DNA of 64,000 bases from an uncultured Actinomycetes bacterium (GTDB lineage Bacteria > Actinomycetota > Thermoleophilia > Solirubrobacterales > Thermoleophilaceae). Positions 1,243 through 56,631 of the stretch are shown here, piece after piece (within the stretch, counting starts at the first letter, position 1; each line of letters begins with the position of its first letter). The position numbers were made by a program, and so were the translations under genes. The notes below the pieces were generated by a model that had not been told where the DNA came from, searched no databases, and worked only from the letters and a program-made list of their open reading frames with translations. Where the stretch lies: the NCBI GenBank assembly GCA_963724205.1, contig CAVRTK010000004.1:303830-367829 (forward strand). Reading direction: 5' to 3'.

Positions 1243-2472
1243 ATGCCGAAGCGCAGGACAAAGCGCGGGGCGGAGCGCACTCCGCTCGTCGATCGCGACG
1301 CCGACATCCTGATCTGCGGCGCGTCGTTTGCCGGGCTCACCGTCGCGCGCGAGCTCGCGGGCGCGGGCGCGCGCGTCTTGGTGATCGACCGCTACGAGGT
1401 CGGCGAGCGGCAGACCTCCGCCTGCGGGGTGCCGACGGAGTGGCTGCGCGCGCTCGGCCTGATGGGCGCCCACCGTCAGACGTTCCCCGAGCTCGTCATC
1501 CACACCCCGCACACCAGCGTGCGCTACGAGCTGCCGTGGACGTTCTCGACGTTCGACTACCGCGAGCTGTGCGCGCTGCTGGACGACCAGAACGACGCGG
1601 AGTTCGAGATCGCGAAGGTCAACGGGCGCACGGGCGACGTCGTCCACACCGACCGCGGCGACATCTCGGCGCCGATCGTCGTCGACGCCCTGGGCTGGAA
1701 GCGCATGCTCGCGGCCGGCCACTACCAGCCGCCGGATGCGCCGCTGTCGCGCGGGCTCGAGGTCCACCCGCACGGCGCCGGCGAGGACCTGGAGGTGTGG
1801 ATCGACCGCCGCTACGTGCCCGCGGGCTATGGCTGGTCGTTCCCCGCGCGCGACGAGGTGCGCGTCGGCGTCGGGTCGTTCGACCCCCGCTTCCACGTCA
1901 AGGACACGACCGTGCTGCTCGCCGAGGACCTGGAGCGCGACGCGGTCCGCTACCAGGGCAACTGGATCCCGCACAAGCTGCGCGACGGGACCGAGGACGG
2001 CGTCTTCTTCGTCGGCGACTCCGCCGGTCACTGCCTGCCGCTCACCGCGGAGGGCATCCGCACGGCGTTCTACTTCGGGATCGCCTGCGGGCGCGAGCTG
2101 CGCGCGGTCGTCGAGGGGCGCCAGTCACGCGCGGCGGCGCTGGCCCGCTACCACGACTTCAACGCCGCGCACCGCTGGAAGTTCGAGGCGATGCTGCGCG
2201 TGCAGCGGCTCGTCCCGCGCGTGCCCCCGCGGCTGCTCGCGCCCGCGCTGAACGCGATGGGCACGAGGTCGTTCGTCGACTGGTCGTTCGGCCACTACCT
2301 GCAGATCGCGCCGCCGTCGTTCGCGGGCGGCGCGCCCGCGCCCGGACCGTCACCGCGGCCCGGCGCGAGCTCGCGCGCGCGGCCTAGTCCGTCGTCGCCG
2401 TTGCGTCAGAAGCCGCGGCGCTCGCGGTCGCGGCGCTCGGCCAGCCGGACCTCGCCGGTGCGGTGGCGGTAG
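1243..2472 (+). CDS. FAD-dependent oxidoreductase, geranylgeranyl-reductase family
   Basis: N-terminal Rossmann dinucleotide-binding motif DILICGASFAGLTVARELAGAGARVLVIDR; GR-family body (FFVGDSAGHCLPLTAEGI). The last ~60 aa are low-complexity Pro/Ser/Arg and may be read-through after a missed stop or frameshift. Confidence 0.75.
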   Translation: MPKRRTKRGAERTPLVDRDADILICGASFAGLTVARELAGAGARVLVIDRYEVGERQTSACGVPTEWLRALGLMGAHRQTFPELVIHTPHTSVRYELPWTFSTFDYRELCALLDDQNDAEFEIAKVNGRTGDVVHTDRGDISAPIVVDALGWKRMLAAGHYQPPDAPLSRGLEVHPHGAGEDLEVWIDRRYVPAGYGWSFPARDEVRVGVGSFDPRFHVKDTTVLLAEDLERDAVRYQGNWIPHKLRDGTEDGVFFVGDSAGHCLPLTAEGIRTAFYFGIACGRELRAVVEGRQSRAAALARYHDFNAAHRWKFEAMLRVQRLVPRVPPRLLAPALNAMGTRSFVDWSFGHYLQIAPPSFAGGAPAPGPSPRPGASSRARPSPSSPLRQKPRRSRSRRSASRTSPVRWR

Positions 2473-2732
2473 TAGAAGCCCCCGAACCAGACCAGGCCCA
2501 TCACGATCGCGATCACGGTCGCGGCGATGGCGTCGCCGAGGTCGACCGCCCCCATCGCGGCGAAGAACAGGAAGATCGCGGCCAGGCCGCCGCAGACGGC
2601 GAACAGCAGCGACACGACGCCGCGCAGCAGGTGGCCGTGCTCCTCCTCCTCGGTGCGGACGTACGCGTGGCGCTCGGCCTGCGGACCGGCGGGCGCGGCG
2701 TTCTGGTCAAGGACTGGCGGTTCGAATCCCAT
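2406..2732 (-). CDS. small membrane protein, hypothetical
   Basis: 108-aa ORF with two hydrophobic helices (VVSLLFAVCGGLAAIFLFFAAMGAV and IAATVIAIVMGLVWFGGFYY). No recognisable domain. Confidence 0.4.
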   Translation of the reverse strand: MGFEPPVLDQNAAPAGPQAERHAYVRTEEEEHGHLLRGVVSLLFAVCGGLAAIFLFFAAMGAVDLGDAIAATVIAIVMGLVWFGGFYYRHRTGEVRLAERRDRERRGF

Positions 2733-2809
2733 GGTCGTGGCCTCCCTCCGAAGCGACTCTCCTGGCGCGATCCTACGCCTGCCGGCCGGACGTATCCAGC
2801 CTCTTGCGC

Positions 2810-3255
2810 CTACTCGCGCACGATCAGGAAGACGCCCGCCGCGAGCAGCATCACGCCGAGCACGCGGGGGACGCTGATCGCCTTCTCCGGGCAGGCCGAG
2901 CGCACCCCGCGCGGTCGAGCACCACGGCCATCGTCAGCTGGCCCGCGATCGTGGCGGCCGTGACGCCGCCGGCGCCGAGCTCGCGCACCGTCACCAGGGC
3001 GGTCGTGACGTACGCCGCACCCAGCGCGCCGCCGATCAGGTAGTACCAGTTGAGGTCGCGCGCATGGCCCAGGTCGCCGAGGCCGCCGCCGACCGTGACG
3101 CAGATCGCCAGCAGCAGCACGGTCCCCGTGGCGAACGAGAACGTGGCGGCCGCGAACGTCCCGATCGACTTGCCGAGCGTCGAGTTGATCGGCGCCTGCA
3201 TCGCGACGAGCGCGCCCGCGGCGGCCGCGAGGGGGACGGCGATCCACTTGTCCAC
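2810..3255 (-). CDS. DMT-superfamily membrane protein (YdcZ/DUF606-like), frameshifted
   Basis: N-terminus MDKWIAVPLAAAAGALVAMQAPINSTLGKSIG matches the YdcZ family. The C-terminal helix (EKAISVPRVLGVMLLAAGVFLIVRE) is in another frame from about 2905–2925, so one indel is needed. Confidence 0.6.
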
Positions 3256-3297: not shown

Positions 3298-3896
3298 CTA
3301 GCCGCGTGACCGCCCGGCTTCGAGCGCCTCCCTGTCCTCGCGCCGCATCCGCACGCTGATGCCGCCCATCAGCGAGAACGCGCGCACGTGCACGCGCGGG
3401 GCGCCCGGCGGCAGGTCCTGGACCGGCACCCTGTCGTCGTTGCCGCCCATCAGGGCGAAGCCGGTCATCTCCACGTCGACGCCGGCCGGGACCACGACGC
3501 TGACGCCGCCCATGATCGCCACCGCCGTGATGCGCACCTCGGGGGACTCCATCTGGGCGTGGCGCAGGTCGATGTCGGCGCCGCTCATCAGTGACACCGC
3601 GGTGAGCTTGGGGCCGGCGCGCCAGCGCCCGCGCAGGTTGCCGCCGCCCATCACCGAGACGAGCAGCGGCGCGGCTTGCGGCCCGACGGCGCGACCTCGC
3701 GCCCGGTCGCCGTCGCGGGCAGGTCGGTGGTCAGCTCGGCCAGCTCGGCGGCGGTCCTGGCGGCGTAGGCGCTCTCGACCCGCTCGTCGAGCTCGTCGAT
3801 CGTCAGGCGCCCCTCCCCCGCCGCATCCCTCAGGCGTTCCGCGACCCGCTCACGATCGGCGTCCGAGACGCGCAGGTCGGGCGGGTCGGGGGTCAC
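3298..3896 (-). CDS. DUF1707 N-terminal domain plus LiaF/YvqF-like C-terminal domain membrane protein, frameshifted
   Basis: N-terminus VTPDPPDLRVSDADRERVAERLRDAAGEGRLTIDELDERVESAY is DUF1707. The C-terminal part repeats LMGG(I/V)SV motifs typical of the LiaF C-terminal domain. The GTG start at 3896 overlaps the polA stop (GTGA). A frameshift lies near 3650. Confidence 0.6.
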
Positions 3897-53370: not shown

Positions 53371-54354
53371 TCAGCGCGGGCGGCGCTGCTGGGCGGCGCG
53401 CAGCTCAGGAGTGTGCTGCGACTGATAGGAGTCGTAGGCCTCGACGATGCGCTGCACGAGCTTGTGGCGCACCACGTCCTCGCCGCCGAAGCGGACGAAG
53501 TCGATGCCCTCGACCTCGCCCAGGATGTCGCCGATCACCACGAGGCCGGAGCGCTGGTTCTTCTCCAGGTCGATCTGGGTGATGTCGCCGGTCACGACCA
53601 TCTTCGAGTTGAAGCCGAGCCGGGTCAGGAACATCTTCATCTGCTCGGGCGTCGTGTTCTGCGCCTCGTCGAGGATGATGAACGAGTCGTTGAGCGTGCG
53701 GCCGCGCATGTACGCGAGCGGCGCGACCTCGATCACGTTGCGCTCGAGGTGCTGGTTGACCTTCTCCGGCTCGAGCATGTCGTAGAGCGCGTCGAACAGC
53801 GGGCGCAGGTACGGGTCGACCTTGGCCATCAGGTCGCCGGGCAGGAAGCCGAGCCGCTCGCCGGCCTCGACGGCCGGCCGGGTCAGGACGATGCGGTTGA
53901 CCTCGCGGCGCTGGAGCGCGGCGACCGCGCAGGCCACGGCCAGGAACGACTTGCCGGTGCCCGCCGGGCCGATGCCGACGGTGATCGTCTCGCGGCGGAT
54001 CGCGTCGACGTAGCGCTTCTGGTTGACGGTCTTCGGCGCGACCTTGGTCGAGCGGTGGCGCCAGATCACGTCCTCCAGGATCCGGCTGGGCGACTCGTGC
54101 GCGTCGAGCGCGCTGGTGATCGCCTCGATCGTCCCGGGGATGATCTCGTGGCCCTGGCGGACCAGGTCGGACAGCTCGCGGACGACGGTCTCGGCCATCC
54201 CGACCTCGGCGTCGCCGCCGTCGATCGTCAGCACGTTGCCGCGCAGGAACACGTCGGCGTCGAGGTGGCCCTCGAGCGACTTCATCACGACGTCGCCCGG
54301 ACCGGCCAGCTCGGTCGCGACTTCGTTGGGGAGCTCGAGTTGGCGACGGGCCAC
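53371..54354 (-). CDS. phoH: PhoH-family ATPase
   Basis: ITVGIGPAGTGKSFLAVACAV (Walker A); FIILDEAQNTT (Walker B); conserved C-terminal region. The GTG start overlaps the yqeY stop by 1 nt. Confidence 0.85.
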   Translation of the reverse strand: MARRQLELPNEVATELAGPGDVVMKSLEGHLDADVFLRGNVLTIDGGDAEVGMAETVVRELSDLVRQGHEIIPGTIEAITSALDAHESPSRILEDVIWRHRSTKVAPKTVNQKRYVDAIRRETITVGIGPAGTGKSFLAVACAVAALQRREVNRIVLTRPAVEAGERLGFLPGDLMAKVDPYLRPLFDALYDMLEPEKVNQHLERNVIEVAPLAYMRGRTLNDSFIILDEAQNTTPEQMKMFLTRLGFNSKMVVTGDITQIDLEKNQRSGLVVIGDILGEVEGIDFVRFGGEDVVRHKLVQRIVEAYDSYQSQHTPELRAAQQRRPR

Positions 54355-54796
54355 TAGGCGGTCAGGAGCTCCTTCACGAGGGCGCTCACGCGCTTGCCGT
54401 CCGCGCGGCCCTGGATCCGCGGCATGACCTGGGACATGACCTTGCCCATCTCCTTCGGCGACGAGGCGCCGGACTCCGCCACGACGTCGCCGACGATCGC
54501 GCGCAGCTCCTCGTCGGAGAGCTGGGCGGGCAGGTACGCCTCGATGATCGCCGCCTCGCGCTGCTCGCCGTCGGCCAGGTCCGTCGCGCGAGGCCTCGCG
54601 GTAGGCGTCTGCGGCCTCCAGGCGGCGCTTGCGCTCGCGCTGGAGCACGGCGACCTCGTCGGCCTGGCTCCCGCTTGCCTCCTTGTGCGCCTTCTGGAGC
54701 TCGTTCGAGATCAGGCGCAGAGCGTTCACGCGCTCGCGGTCGCCCGCGCGCATCGCGTCCTTCGTGTCGGTCTGTACCTGTTCGAGCAGCGACATG
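54355..54796 (-). CDS. yqeY: GatB/YqeY-domain protein, frameshifted
   Basis: MSLLEQVQTDTKDAMRAGDRERVNALRLISNELQKAHKE...VAVLQRERKRRLEAADAYREA; C-terminus ...ALVKELLTA* in a second frame. Confidence 0.75.
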
Positions 54797-54809
54797 TGCA
54801 CGATCAATT

Positions 54810-55238
54810 CTATGCGGGCGGGCGGCAGGCGCTGCACAGGCCGGTGACCACCAGCTCGGCCCGCTCGGGGGCGAAGCCGTGACGCTCGGCCGACGCGAGG
54901 GCGGCGGCGGTGTCCAGGTCCAGGTCGACGTCGATCACCCGGCGGCAGCTCGAGCACACCAGATGGTGGTGGTCGTCGGTGTGCGGGTCGTACAGGACGG
55001 CCCCGGGGGCGACCGTCACCCGGCGCGCGAAGCCCAGGTCGGCCAGCACCTCGAGCGCCGAGTAGACCGTCGGCACCGCGACGTTGGGGAACTCCGTGGC
55101 CACCTCGGTGGTGACCTCGTCGACGCTCGCATGGCGGTCCAGCCGCCGCAGGGCGCGCGCGATCACCAGGCGCTGCGGCGTCACGCGCATGCCGTTGTCG
55201 CGGAGGGCCTGGGTGAGGGCTGTGTCGGTCGCGGACAT
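54810..55238 (-). CDS. fur: Fur-family transcriptional regulator
   Basis: RVTPQRLVIARAL (DNA-binding helix); HHHLVCSSCRRVIDVD and CSAC (structural Zn Cys pairs); metal-site His/Asp cluster DPHTDDHHH. Confidence 0.85.
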   Translation of the reverse strand: MSATDTALTQALRDNGMRVTPQRLVIARALRRLDRHASVDEVTTEVATEFPNVAVPTVYSALEVLADLGFARRVTVAPGAVLYDPHTDDHHHLVCSSCRRVIDVDLDLDTAAALASAERHGFAPERAELVVTGLCSACRPPA

Positions 55239-55242
55239 CGTG

Positions 55243-55277
55243 TTAGGCAACCCTTATCCTAAACTATTAGTTATAGT
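55243..55277. promoter_or_regulatory. divergent promoter/operator region between fur and the VIT transporter gene
   Basis: The only AT-rich stretch in the neighbourhood. TTAGG(n10)CCTAA inverted arms at 55243–55262; AACTA-T-TAGTT palindrome at 55262–55272; TATAGT -10-like hexamer at 55272–55277, 6–7 nt before the VIT ATG (leaderless layout). Confidence 0.35.
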
Positions 55278-55793
55278 GTGTCCATGACGACTCTGGCGAG
55301 GACCCTGCTCGCCGGCTGGTACGGAGCCGACGACCGCAAGCGTCTGCTGCAGGTCGTGCAGCCCGGCCTCGTGGGCCTGATCGACGGGACGATCTCGACG
55401 CTCGCGCCGCTGTTCGCGACCGCCTACATCGCCGGCTCGCACGCCGCGCTGCTGGTGGGCCTGGCGGCAGCGCTCGGCGCCGCGATCTCGATGGGCATGT
55501 CCGAGGGGCTCTCCGACGACGGCGAGCTCACCGGCCGCGGGTCGTCGCTGGGCCGCGGGCTGATCACGGGCGGCGGCACGTTCCTCGGCGGCACGTTCCA
55601 CACGCTGCCGTTCCTGATCGACGACGTGAGCACGGCGCTGGCGCTGGCCTACGCGATCGTGTCGGTCGAGCTGTTCGCGATCGCCTTGATTCGCAAGCGC
55701 TTCCTGAACGTGTCGCTGCGCAGCTCGCTGATCCAGGTGACGCTGGGCGGCGCGATCGTCGCGCTGACCGGCTTCGTGGTCGGGCACGCGTAG
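55278..55793 (+). CDS. VIT1/CCC1-family Fe2+/Mn2+ transporter
   Basis: GLIDGTISTLAPLFATAYIAGS...GLSDDGELTGRGS...; five hydrophobic helices. The start is the GTG at 55278 or the ATG at 55284. Confidence 0.75.
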   Translation: MSMTTLARTLLAGWYGADDRKRLLQVVQPGLVGLIDGTISTLAPLFATAYIAGSHAALLVGLAAALGAAISMGMSEGLSDDGELTGRGSSLGRGLITGGGTFLGGTFHTLPFLIDDVSTALALAYAIVSVELFAIALIRKRFLNVSLRSSLIQVTLGGAIVALTGFVVGHA

Positions 55794-55943
55794 CGGCGCG
55801 CGCTCGTTTCACTCAGCACGGCCTCCCGCGGAGCGCCGGCGGCAGAGTCGCTCCCGGCCGCCCGGGTGGGCGCTTTTCGTCTCGTGTATGGAGACGAAAG
55901 GCGCCCAGCGGTCTGATCGAGGCGCGGGCACTAGGGTCCCGGC

Positions 55944-56631
55944 ATGGCGCTCGGCGGGATCAAGGTCGCGACCTTCGACTGCTACGGCACGCTCGTCGAC
56001 TGGGAGGGCGGCGCGGCGTCGTTCCTCTACGACCTGTGCATGCGGCACGGCGACCCCTCCCCTCCCCCCGGCCGTGAGCTGCGGGACCGCTGGGAGGCGA
56101 TCCAGTTCGAGATCGTCTCCGGCGCCGACTACCGGCCCTACAAGCAGGTGCTGGCGGAGTCGCTGCAGGCCTGGATGGAGGAGCGCGGGCTGGAGTACGA
56201 CCCGGTCGAGGGCGACGCCCTCGTGCGCGCGATCCGCTCCTGGCAGCCGTTCCCGGACACCCGCCCGGCGCTCGACGCGCGCCCGCGAGGCCGGCCTGCG
56301 GCTGGTGATCCTCTCGAACACCGACCGCGACATCATCGAGCACACGGTCCGCCACATCGGGGTCCCGTTCGACGACGTCGTGACCGCCGAGGACTGCGGC
56401 GCCTACAAGCCCGCCGACACAGTCTTCGCCCAGGCGCTCGAGCGCATCGGGGAGCCGCCGGACGCGGTGCTGCATGTGGCGTTCGGCTTCAAGTACGACC
56501 TGCCGCCGGCCGAGCGCGCCGGCATGCGCACGGCGTGGGTCAACCGCCATGCCGAGCGGCCGCCCGGCGACGCCCGCCGCGACCACGAGTGGCGCGACCT
56601 GTGGGGCCTGGCGGAGCTGGCGACGGGCTGA
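55944..56631 (+). CDS. HAD-superfamily hydrolase (haloacid dehalogenase type II-like), frameshift about 56285
   Basis: KVATFDCYGTLVDWEG (motif I DxYGT); ...LRLVILSNTDRDIIE (motif II S/T); GAYKP (motif III K); C-terminal part in a second frame. Confidence 0.75.

Follow-up and report, generated by a model that had tools for sequence, protein, structure and literature searches.

A conserved 14-bp operator-like box between divergent genes for a Fur-family regulator and a VIT-family transporter in Thermoleophilia

The divergent fur-VIT pair and the box in its spacer

The 64,000-nucleotide (nt) stretch of DNA analysed here, referred to as the window, comes from an uncultured member of the Thermoleophilaceae (Actinomycetota; contig CAVRTK010000004.1, positions 303,830 to 367,829 of the forward strand) and carries a gene for a Fur-family regulator divergent from a gene for a VIT-family transporter. 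The regulator gene (54810–55238, minus strand) encodes 142 amino acids between ATG 55238 (CAT at 55236–55238) and a TAG stop codon at 54810–54812, with an alternative in-frame TTG at 55250. Residues 15 to 130 of its product match the Pfam FUR profile PF01475 with 81.1 bits against a cut-off of 23.1. The transporter gene (55284–55793, plus strand) encodes 169 amino acids that make up a five-helix membrane domain only. The protein matches PF01988 (VIT1) with 38.7 bits against a cut-off of 28.1, and the strongest stretch, residues 87 to 168, corresponds to the C-terminal third of the profile. Because close homologues are 163 to 172 amino acids long and most of them cover the query from residue 1, the VIT start is predicted to be ATG 55284 and not GTG 55278. 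The 45-bp gap between the two genes is AT-rich compared with its surroundings, which have about 70% GC, and it harbours a 14-bp operator-like box at 55243–55256 (TTAGGCAACCCTTA, read as TTAGG-CAAC-CCTTA), a 5-4-5 dyad of the class T[T/A]AGG-N4-CCT[T/A]A. No other match to this box was found in the window, even with one mismatch allowed.

The gene pair is widely retained. A scan for VIT genes, restricted to one genome per species, yielded 80 loci, mostly from Thermoleophilia (Solirubrobacterales, Thermoleophilaceae, Conexibacter, and Baekduia); counts out of 81 refer to these loci plus the window. In 71 of the 80 genomes, a divergent Fur homologue lies at most 400 nt upstream of the VIT gene. 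Six further Fur-homologue look-ups gave fur-VIT pairs again in five cases, and the flanks of these pairs differ (HAD/LanC, a solute-binding protein, Dus, a response regulator, and EamA). Fur and VIT thus appear to form a conserved two-gene module, and such persistence in changing surroundings typically marks a regulator and its target. The divergent arrangement of the two genes, reported in a preliminary description of the locus, is supported.

The box is conserved with the pair. The AT-rich patterns considered in the spacer each occur just once in the window and never in shuffled sequences; this uniqueness follows from the rarity of AT-rich words in DNA of about 70% GC. Since any AT-rich 10-mer is rare at this composition, shuffles cannot tell a real dyad from the dyads proposed earlier, and conservation among orthologous spacers was used as the discriminating test instead. 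The exact box occurs at the same place in 63 of the 80 orthologous loci, and just two other exact matches were found in the 408 kb of VIT-locus DNA scanned. Allowing at most one mismatch, at least one box is present in 76 of 81 spacers and two such boxes are present in 26. The anchored comparison gave the consensus (c)CATC-TTAGG-g.at-CCTTA-Tt..AAg.cacTTGt-TATAgT, followed by 6 to 8 nt and then by ATG or GTG. Boxes at VIT genes are asymmetric, with CCTTA as the right half in 48 of 64 loci and T at position 9 in 44 of 64.

The spacer is therefore conserved in orthologous fur-VIT pairs, the point on which the preliminary description had staked its proposal. It had placed the operator elsewhere, in TTAGG-n10-CCTAA and/or in a 5-1-5 palindrome. 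Both are exact and unique in the window, and all the listed elements are where they had been reported: TTAGG at 55243–55247, CCTAA 10 nt farther on at 55258–55262, the palindrome AACTATTAGTT at 55262–55272, and TATAGT at 55272–55277, between the fur ATG at 55238 and GTG 55278 or ATG 55284. Among orthologous spacers, however, both are specific to the window. TTAGG-n10-CCTAA occurs in 1 of 81, namely the window itself, its CCTAA arm sits in the variable part of the linker, and the conserved TTAGG-N4-CCTTA dyad has only the left arm in common with it. The palindrome has all five of its pairs in the window alone and at most two of five in 58 of 64 orthologues. What is conserved within it (AA...TTG) belongs to the linker, where TTG reads as the TGn of an extended −10 element and the window has TAG. 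We therefore consider it very improbable that either pattern is the operator.

Both CCTAA and the palindrome fall inside a longer linker element, element b, at 55256–55274 (ATCCTAA-ACTAT-TAGTTAT in the window; consensus ATTnCAA-N5-TTGnTAT, a weak 7-5-7 dyad). It is partially conserved, at positions 14 to 16, 19 to 20, and 26 to 28. Its arms are about 60% complementary on average, perfectly so in loci L023 and L058 (ATTGCAA-N5-TTGCAAT), and only 3/7 in the window. As a second operator, element b was set aside and kept only as a possibility, as it is weakly symmetric and mostly explained by two divergent −10 regions.

None of the Fur, PerR, Nur, ICE, DtxR, and IdeR consensus sequences compared with the spacer fits it. 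The best match to the PerR box (TTATAAT-N-ATTATAA) in 55225–55300 has 6 mismatches in 14 positions. The Fur box, taken either as GATAATGATAATCATTATC or as a 7-1-7 motif, gives 8/19 and 6/14 mismatches in the spacer, and ICE (TTTAGAA-N3-TTCTAAA) gives 7/14. The 19-bp DtxR/IdeR palindrome TTAGGTTAGSCTAACCTAA, which accommodates two offset dimers, is matched in the window with 6/19 mismatches. A canonical 19-bp IdeR box with at most three mismatches was not found in approximately 800 kb of related loci, where most matches with four or five mismatches came from aligning the 14-bp box with one end of the consensus. The single-dimer DtxR sub-site, with T[T/A]AGG half-sites 4 bp apart, is nevertheless present at 55243–55256, and the earlier remark that the arms resemble DtxR/IdeR half-sites was apt. 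The stretch between the two start codons contains no inverted repeat with arms of at least 6 nt beyond the short dyads described, and a scan of 54500–56100 against Rfam, even at E ≤ 1, returned no match and hence no riboswitch.

Several pairs show variations of the spacer. In a more distant fur-VIT pair, whose Fur protein is 51% identical, three boxes repeat in tandem every 17 bp (L161:2927–2974: TAAGGGAGCCCTAA, TAAGGTAGCCCTAA, and GTAGGGACCCCTAA). A pair in a metagenome-assembled genome of Candidatus Dormiibacterota (L077) has the same recognition helix in its regulator and the palindrome TTAGTC-N10-GACTAA in place of the 14-bp box. At L162/L163, a Fur-like orthologue (2000–3000) is divergent from a ferritin-like gene that is apparently frameshifted in the assembly, and a box followed by C-ATG (3620–3645) precedes an open reading frame (ORF) of 68 amino acids of unknown function that is convergent with fur.

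Promoters on both sides of the box

The position of the box relative to the VIT promoter is as constant as its sequence. A −10 hexamer, TATAGT at 55272–55277 on the plus strand, aligns as T-A-T-A-(G/A)-T located 15 nt after the box in 37 canonical loci; in the window, the box is followed by a 15-nt linker, TATAGT, 6 nt, and ATG 55284. In 53 of 81 loci, a TANNNT hexamer ends 5 to 8 nt before the VIT start (gap of 6 nt in 9 loci, 7 nt in 23, and 8 nt in 20), and no Shine-Dalgarno sequence was seen before the VIT start in loci of this geometry. This conserved spacing supports the prediction, already put forward in the preliminary description, that the VIT mRNA is leaderless. With the A of the VIT ATG taken as +1, the box occupies positions −41 to −28, and no −35 hexamer is recognisable. 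Most orthologues have a promoter of the extended −10 type, whereas the window has lost the TG. In a sub-clade with two abutting boxes, the −10 hexamer and the start codon have moved together 7 to 10 bp outward, leaving 22 to 25 nt between box and hexamer.

On the opposite strand, a scan with the sigma-70 consensus revealed a candidate fur promoter at 55256–55284, with TGGACA as the −35 hexamer (55284–55279), a 17-nt spacer, and TAGGAT as the −10 hexamer (55261–55256). It is the only sigma-70-type match in 54700–56000, with 0.0 expected from shuffles, and it predicts a fur transcription start in the window near 55249, that is, inside the box. Of 64 loci, 29 have a fur-strand TANNNT hexamer placed identically with respect to the box. 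The left half-site is overlapped in 27 loci by a TAAGAT-type −10 hexamer on the fur strand, with an in-frame ATG or GTG 5 to 9 nt (mostly 6 to 7) farther on, so that fur would be leaderless in those loci, too. In either arrangement the box would cover the core of the fur promoter, and the two predicted promoters stand back to back and overlap.

In three relatives (L001, L049, and L050), the ATG that abuts the box on the fur strand opens a mini-ORF of three codons (ATG GGx xCA TGA), the stop codon of which overlaps the fur start (ATGA). In some relatives, fur may therefore be coupled to a leaderless mini-ORF.

Downstream of the VIT gene, a terminator-like hairpin at 55859–55872 on the plus strand (a 5-bp GC stem followed by CTTTTCGTCT) suggests that VIT is monocistronic. 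On the other side, yqeY (54300–54795, minus strand) starts at ATG 54795, 14 nt after the fur stop codon, and fur may be co-transcribed with yqeY-phoH-ybeY-era; the fur-yqeY-phoH-ybeY-era synteny also occurs in L164 and L169. The reading frame of yqeY changes after about 68 codons, near 54590: the C-terminal half (…DLADGEQREAAIIEAYLP…) lies in another frame and frame 0 continues into phoH, which reflects either an assembly indel or a real frameshift.

The box at genes for FTR1 iron permeases

One of the two exact boxes found elsewhere in the VIT-locus DNA, at L071:1955, is located directly before a gene for an FTR1-family iron permease downstream of fur, in the form box-G-ATG. With this L071 permease as the query, a single metagenome scan provided 80 loci, 73 of them with upstream sequence. 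At least one exact box lies within 200 nt upstream of the FTR1 gene in 61 of these 73 loci, and all 85 exact boxes in 329 kb of DNA are located there. The consensus at FTR1 genes is a fuller palindrome, aTTAGGG-YR-CCCTAAt, and in 21 loci two boxes abut with a 14-bp period. In 27 of the 61 loci, exactly 7 nt separate the last box from the beginning of a TGn-TANNNT promoter; in another group, the box itself contains the −10 element (TACCCT) and lies near the start codon. Both placements are classical positions for a repressor. FTR1 boxes have A at position 13 in 79 of 84 cases and C at position 9 in 66 of 84, and compared with them the VIT boxes appear systematically weaker and asymmetric.

Since the same box sits on FTR1 promoters, the box in the window is probably one site of an iron-homeostasis regulon that would comprise the FTR1 uptake permeases, the fur-like gene, and VIT. 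The compact regulator-exporter switch envisaged in the preliminary description is upheld as far as the conserved pair is concerned; as a circuit private to fur and VIT, it is at odds with the use of the same box at FTR1 promoters.

The FTR1 loci showed further features. In the leader of approximately 70 to 100 nt between the box or promoter and the FTR1 start, a motif A(A/T)RCCGAG-N6-8-GGTCGG(G/A)WTT with a possible small CCGA/TCGG hairpin recurs in L082 (~2395–2465), L084, L086, L090, L096 to L098, L100, L101, L105, L116, and L146. It may constitute a conserved RNA element of the 5′-untranslated region, and Rfam at the gathering threshold gave no match there in five of these loci. A perfect 9-2-9 palindrome that contains the box (GAGTTAGGGTTCCCTAACTC, L065:2464–2483) is located about 10 nt upstream of an unidentified ORF with no Pfam match, which may be another member of the regulon; the same extended palindrome precedes FTR1 in L099 and L106. 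Finally, a 188-kb metagenome contig with an FTR1 locus has a c-di-AMP riboswitch (RF00379, 62.8 bits; L098:2113–2264, minus strand) upstream of that locus and in divergent orientation.

The regulator, its probable role and related systems

The nearest NCBIfam models of the regulator are PerR, Fur, and IrrA, and the protein scores far under the equivalog cut-offs of all of them: 78.8 against 180, 70.5 against 200, and 57.7 against 200 for PerR, 61.1 against 150 and 52.5 against 170 for Irr/IrrA, and likewise far below the cut-offs of the Fur models. Its best match in the PDB is PerR (2fe3) and the second best is Nur of Streptomyces coelicolor (3eyy). When aligned to Bacillus subtilis PerR (2fe3), residues H36, D84, H90, H92, and D103 match the PerR ligand positions, which we take to be H37, D85, H91, H93, and D104 in the B. 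subtilis numbering. This is the PerR-type set, with Asp and not Glu at the last position. The same alignment revealed a Cys4 site formed by two CxxC pairs (C95, C98, C135, and C138). Residue conservation was counted in 72 VIT-linked Fur-family sequences, and the five ligands and four cysteines are invariant in 71 to 72 of them. Because all these positions are present and invariant, the regulator is most probably a metal-binding sensor with PerR-like coordination. In most of the 72 sequences the recognition helix reads S-L-P-T-V-Y-A: Pro takes the place of the Ala found in Fur and PerR, and the final residue is Ala in place of the Arg of Fur and the Asn of PerR, the latter being specificity-determining in PerR. 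In the comparison of helix and box covariation, the helix was almost invariant except in the outliers L071 and L063, which keep the same box.

From the conservation, position, and reuse of the box, the leaderless geometry, and the ligand set, we infer the binder, its metal dependence, and the sign of its effect on VIT as follows. The spacer would act as a compact bidirectional promoter region with one copy of the 14-bp operator (55243–55256), to which a metal-loaded dimer of the adjacent Fur-family protein would bind. The bound dimer would cover the fur promoter or transcription start, resulting in autorepression, and would at the same time occupy −41 to −28 of the VIT promoter, whose transcription is predicted to start at the ATG. 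VIT would then be activated, or relieved, at high iron, so that efflux could continue while uptake is shut. We put the probability that the adjacent Fur-family protein is the binder at roughly 0.55. In favour of this binder, its gene stays next to VIT and has a box at its own promoter, as would suit a family in which autoregulation is typical, and its unusual helix is consistent with a non-canonical operator, the spacer lacking matches to the AT-rich Fur and PerR boxes. Moreover, Fur-family proteins can read half-sites that contain TTAG, as exemplified by the ICE half-site of Irr (TTTAGAA).

Several observations weigh against this assignment. Two loci, L023 and L068, retain the box with tmk, and not fur, upstream, and the 80 FTR1 loci are devoid of Fur homologues. 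The Fur-like orthologue of L162/L163 (55% identical), which the sixth look-up returned, is without a box in its own upstream spacer of about 30 nt. In L071, two helix residues of the Fur protein differ (A for P and E for A) and the box is unchanged. In addition, T[T/A]AGG half-sites are a hallmark of DtxR/IdeR operators and not of Fur-family ones. As for the signal and the response, PerR-type ligands with Asp 103 are unlike those of a classical iron-sensing Fur, the sensed signal could be peroxide or manganese, and simple repression of VIT from −41 to −28 would fit the position of the box equally well. Such repression would leave the exporter on at low iron, which is hard to rationalise.

The half-sites and the loci without an adjacent fur speak for a less likely but serious rival reading, in which the box serves an iron regulator of the DtxR/IdeR family whose gene lies elsewhere. 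One dimer per 14-bp box would repress FTR1 and fur and control VIT, and the adjacent Fur-like protein would act on the Nur-box-like 7-5-7 element (ATTnCAA-N5-TTGnTAT) or on other targets. In well-studied Actinomycetota, IdeR is the iron regulator and the Fur paralogues sense peroxide, zinc, or nickel, which counts for such a division of labour. The Nur box of S. coelicolor, TTGCAA-N5-TTGCAA, resembles element b, which is perfect in L023 and L058, and the helix and following segment of the regulator (TVYATLELLEELG) resemble Nur, its second-best PDB match. The box also equals positions 1 to 14 of the DtxR consensus TTAGGTTAGCCTAACCTAA, the T[T/A] degeneracy included (consensus quoted in PMC7762939), and the window site matches DtxR 19-mers at 13 of 19 positions through positions 6 to 19. 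However, no site shows the complete 19-bp arrangement for two dimers, the 5-nt flank reads (c)CATC and not TTAGG, and no IdeR homologue was found in approximately 800 kb of related loci, the FTR1 loci included. Element b, for its part, has a symmetry of only about 60% (3/7 in the window) and can largely be put down to the back-to-back −10 regions, and an IdeR-type binder would leave the linkage of fur and VIT across changing contexts unexplained.

With the adjacent Fur-family protein as the binder, the regulon argues for sensing of iron or manganese over a pure peroxide response, because a repressor on FTR1 promoters is sensible only if it is bound to DNA when the metal is plentiful. The invariant ligand set and the PerR matches would also suit a PerR-type peroxide switch, which would differ from the favoured reading in effector and sign and not in operator: the Fur-like protein, loaded with Fe2+ or Mn2+, would repress VIT and itself from the same box, and metal-catalysed oxidation of its histidine ligands by H2O2 would release it, resulting in iron efflux and less Fenton chemistry. 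All five positions of the PerR regulatory site are filled, PerR is the best match in both NCBIfam and the PDB, and a box at −41 to −28 suits a repressor. In addition, PMC7762939 describes control of Fe-exporting P-type ATPases by Fur and/or PerR and a response of mbfA to oxidative stress. Nevertheless, we consider this switch rather unlikely. The same box is in a repressor position at FTR1, where peroxide would then induce iron uptake, a counter-productive response. Scores with the PerR models reach 79 and 71 bits, with cut-offs at 180 to 200, the PerR box is absent from the spacer, and the helix has Ala where PerR has Asn.

Activation of VIT, or a response at a higher threshold, is favoured because the VIT box leaves the −10 element free, the promoter is without a −35 hexamer, and the site is weaker. 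If the same metal-loaded form binds at the VIT box, the exporter would be useful only if switched on. Holo-Zur of S. coelicolor, which represses uptake genes and at higher metal activates the exporter gene zitB, is a precedent for exporter activation. Fur-pfeT and Irr (PMC7762939) are further precedents. A more detailed scenario is also conceivable, albeit speculative. In Thermoleophilia and some other soil lineages, a Fur-family protein would have converged on a DtxR-like operator, aTTAGGG-YR-CCCTAAt, read by the S-L-P-T-V-Y-A helix, which echoes the S-x-P-T-V motif of DtxR. In its metal-loaded form, it would repress FTR1 and itself from strong sites in the core promoters and activate the gene for a minimal, leaderless VIT exporter from a weakened, asymmetric site near −35. 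If true, this would produce a graded response in which import is shut first and export is opened later.

Bacterial iron efflux is poorly charted. A 2020 review distinguished four classes of bacterial iron exporters and described the MbfA/VIT class as limited to Alphaproteobacteria (PMC7762939). Here, the genes for a minimal 169-amino-acid VIT protein without a ferritin-like domain and for a Fur-family regulator of its own form a tight pair in a whole class of Actinomycetota that is abundant in soil, and the 14-bp operator candidate that ties this pair to FTR1 uptake provides a motif and a testable regulon for a group with hardly any cultured members. It also lends itself, as a natural experiment, to asking whether a single metal sensor might switch off uptake and switch on efflux via sites of different placement and strength. 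The kind of circuit is familiar and the gain is therefore incremental and not conceptual. In a literature search for the motif or for a Fur-VIT pairing in Actinomycetota we found no prior description, which, given incomplete coverage, is weak evidence of novelty. Transport of Fe2+ or Mn2+ out of the cytosol by the VIT protein is predicted from its family alone, and a sequence search of the PDB returned no relative of it.

Broad membership in the Fur and VIT families appears to hold, and each of the closest specific families departs from the proteins described here in at least one tested feature. Judging from the title of reference 32 in PMC7762939, the PfeT efflux ATPase of B. subtilis has a PerR-type repressor and Fur as an activator. 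The present system resembles it in that a presumed iron efflux gene would be controlled by a Fur-family, PerR-type regulator, and the PerR ligand set is common to both. In contrast to B. subtilis, the exporter is a VIT protein and not a P1B4 ATPase, there is no PerR or Fur box, and the regulator gene adjoins its presumed target. Zur-zitB and Nur of S. coelicolor are likewise actinobacterial Fur-family systems, and Nur (3eyy) is structurally the second-closest relative of the regulator; however, their metals are zinc and nickel, their operators differ, and they are not known to be paired divergently with an exporter.

The DtxR/IdeR box (TTAGGTTAGCCTAACCTAA) has half-sites and a 4-bp spacing identical to those of the present box, which corresponds to a 14-bp sub-site of the 19-bp consensus, and both are tied to iron uptake genes. 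Unlike the DtxR/IdeR site, the box occurs as one 14-bp unit or as abutting units with a 14-bp period and never as a double site offset by 5 bp, its inner bases are G-YR-C and not TTAG, and the gene nearby belongs to the Fur family and not to the DtxR family.

In the Irr-mbfA system of Alphaproteobacteria, a Fur-family regulator controls a VIT-type iron exporter. Irr itself is not known to carry the two CxxC pairs, which the protein described here keeps. The ICE half-site TTTAGAA has TTAG in common with the box, although the dyad here is 5-4-5 (16 bp when extended) and not 7-3-7. The VIT protein aligns best to the membrane half of MbfA, and only to positions 164 to 318 of the NCBIfam MbfA model (NF045676; 181 bits against a cut-off of 450); the N-terminal erythrin/ferritin-like domain of MbfA is absent from it. 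Furthermore, the genes here are adjacent and divergent, and the lineage is Actinomycetota. Irr acts as a repressor or an activator depending on the position of its palindromic site (PMC7762939). It binds DNA without an effector and senses haem, whereas a regulon in which FTR1 is repressed would need a metal-loaded DNA-binding form. Collectively, the closest analogue of the fur-VIT system is Irr-mbfA in function, the DtxR/IdeR box in half-site sequence, and PerR in sensor chemistry.

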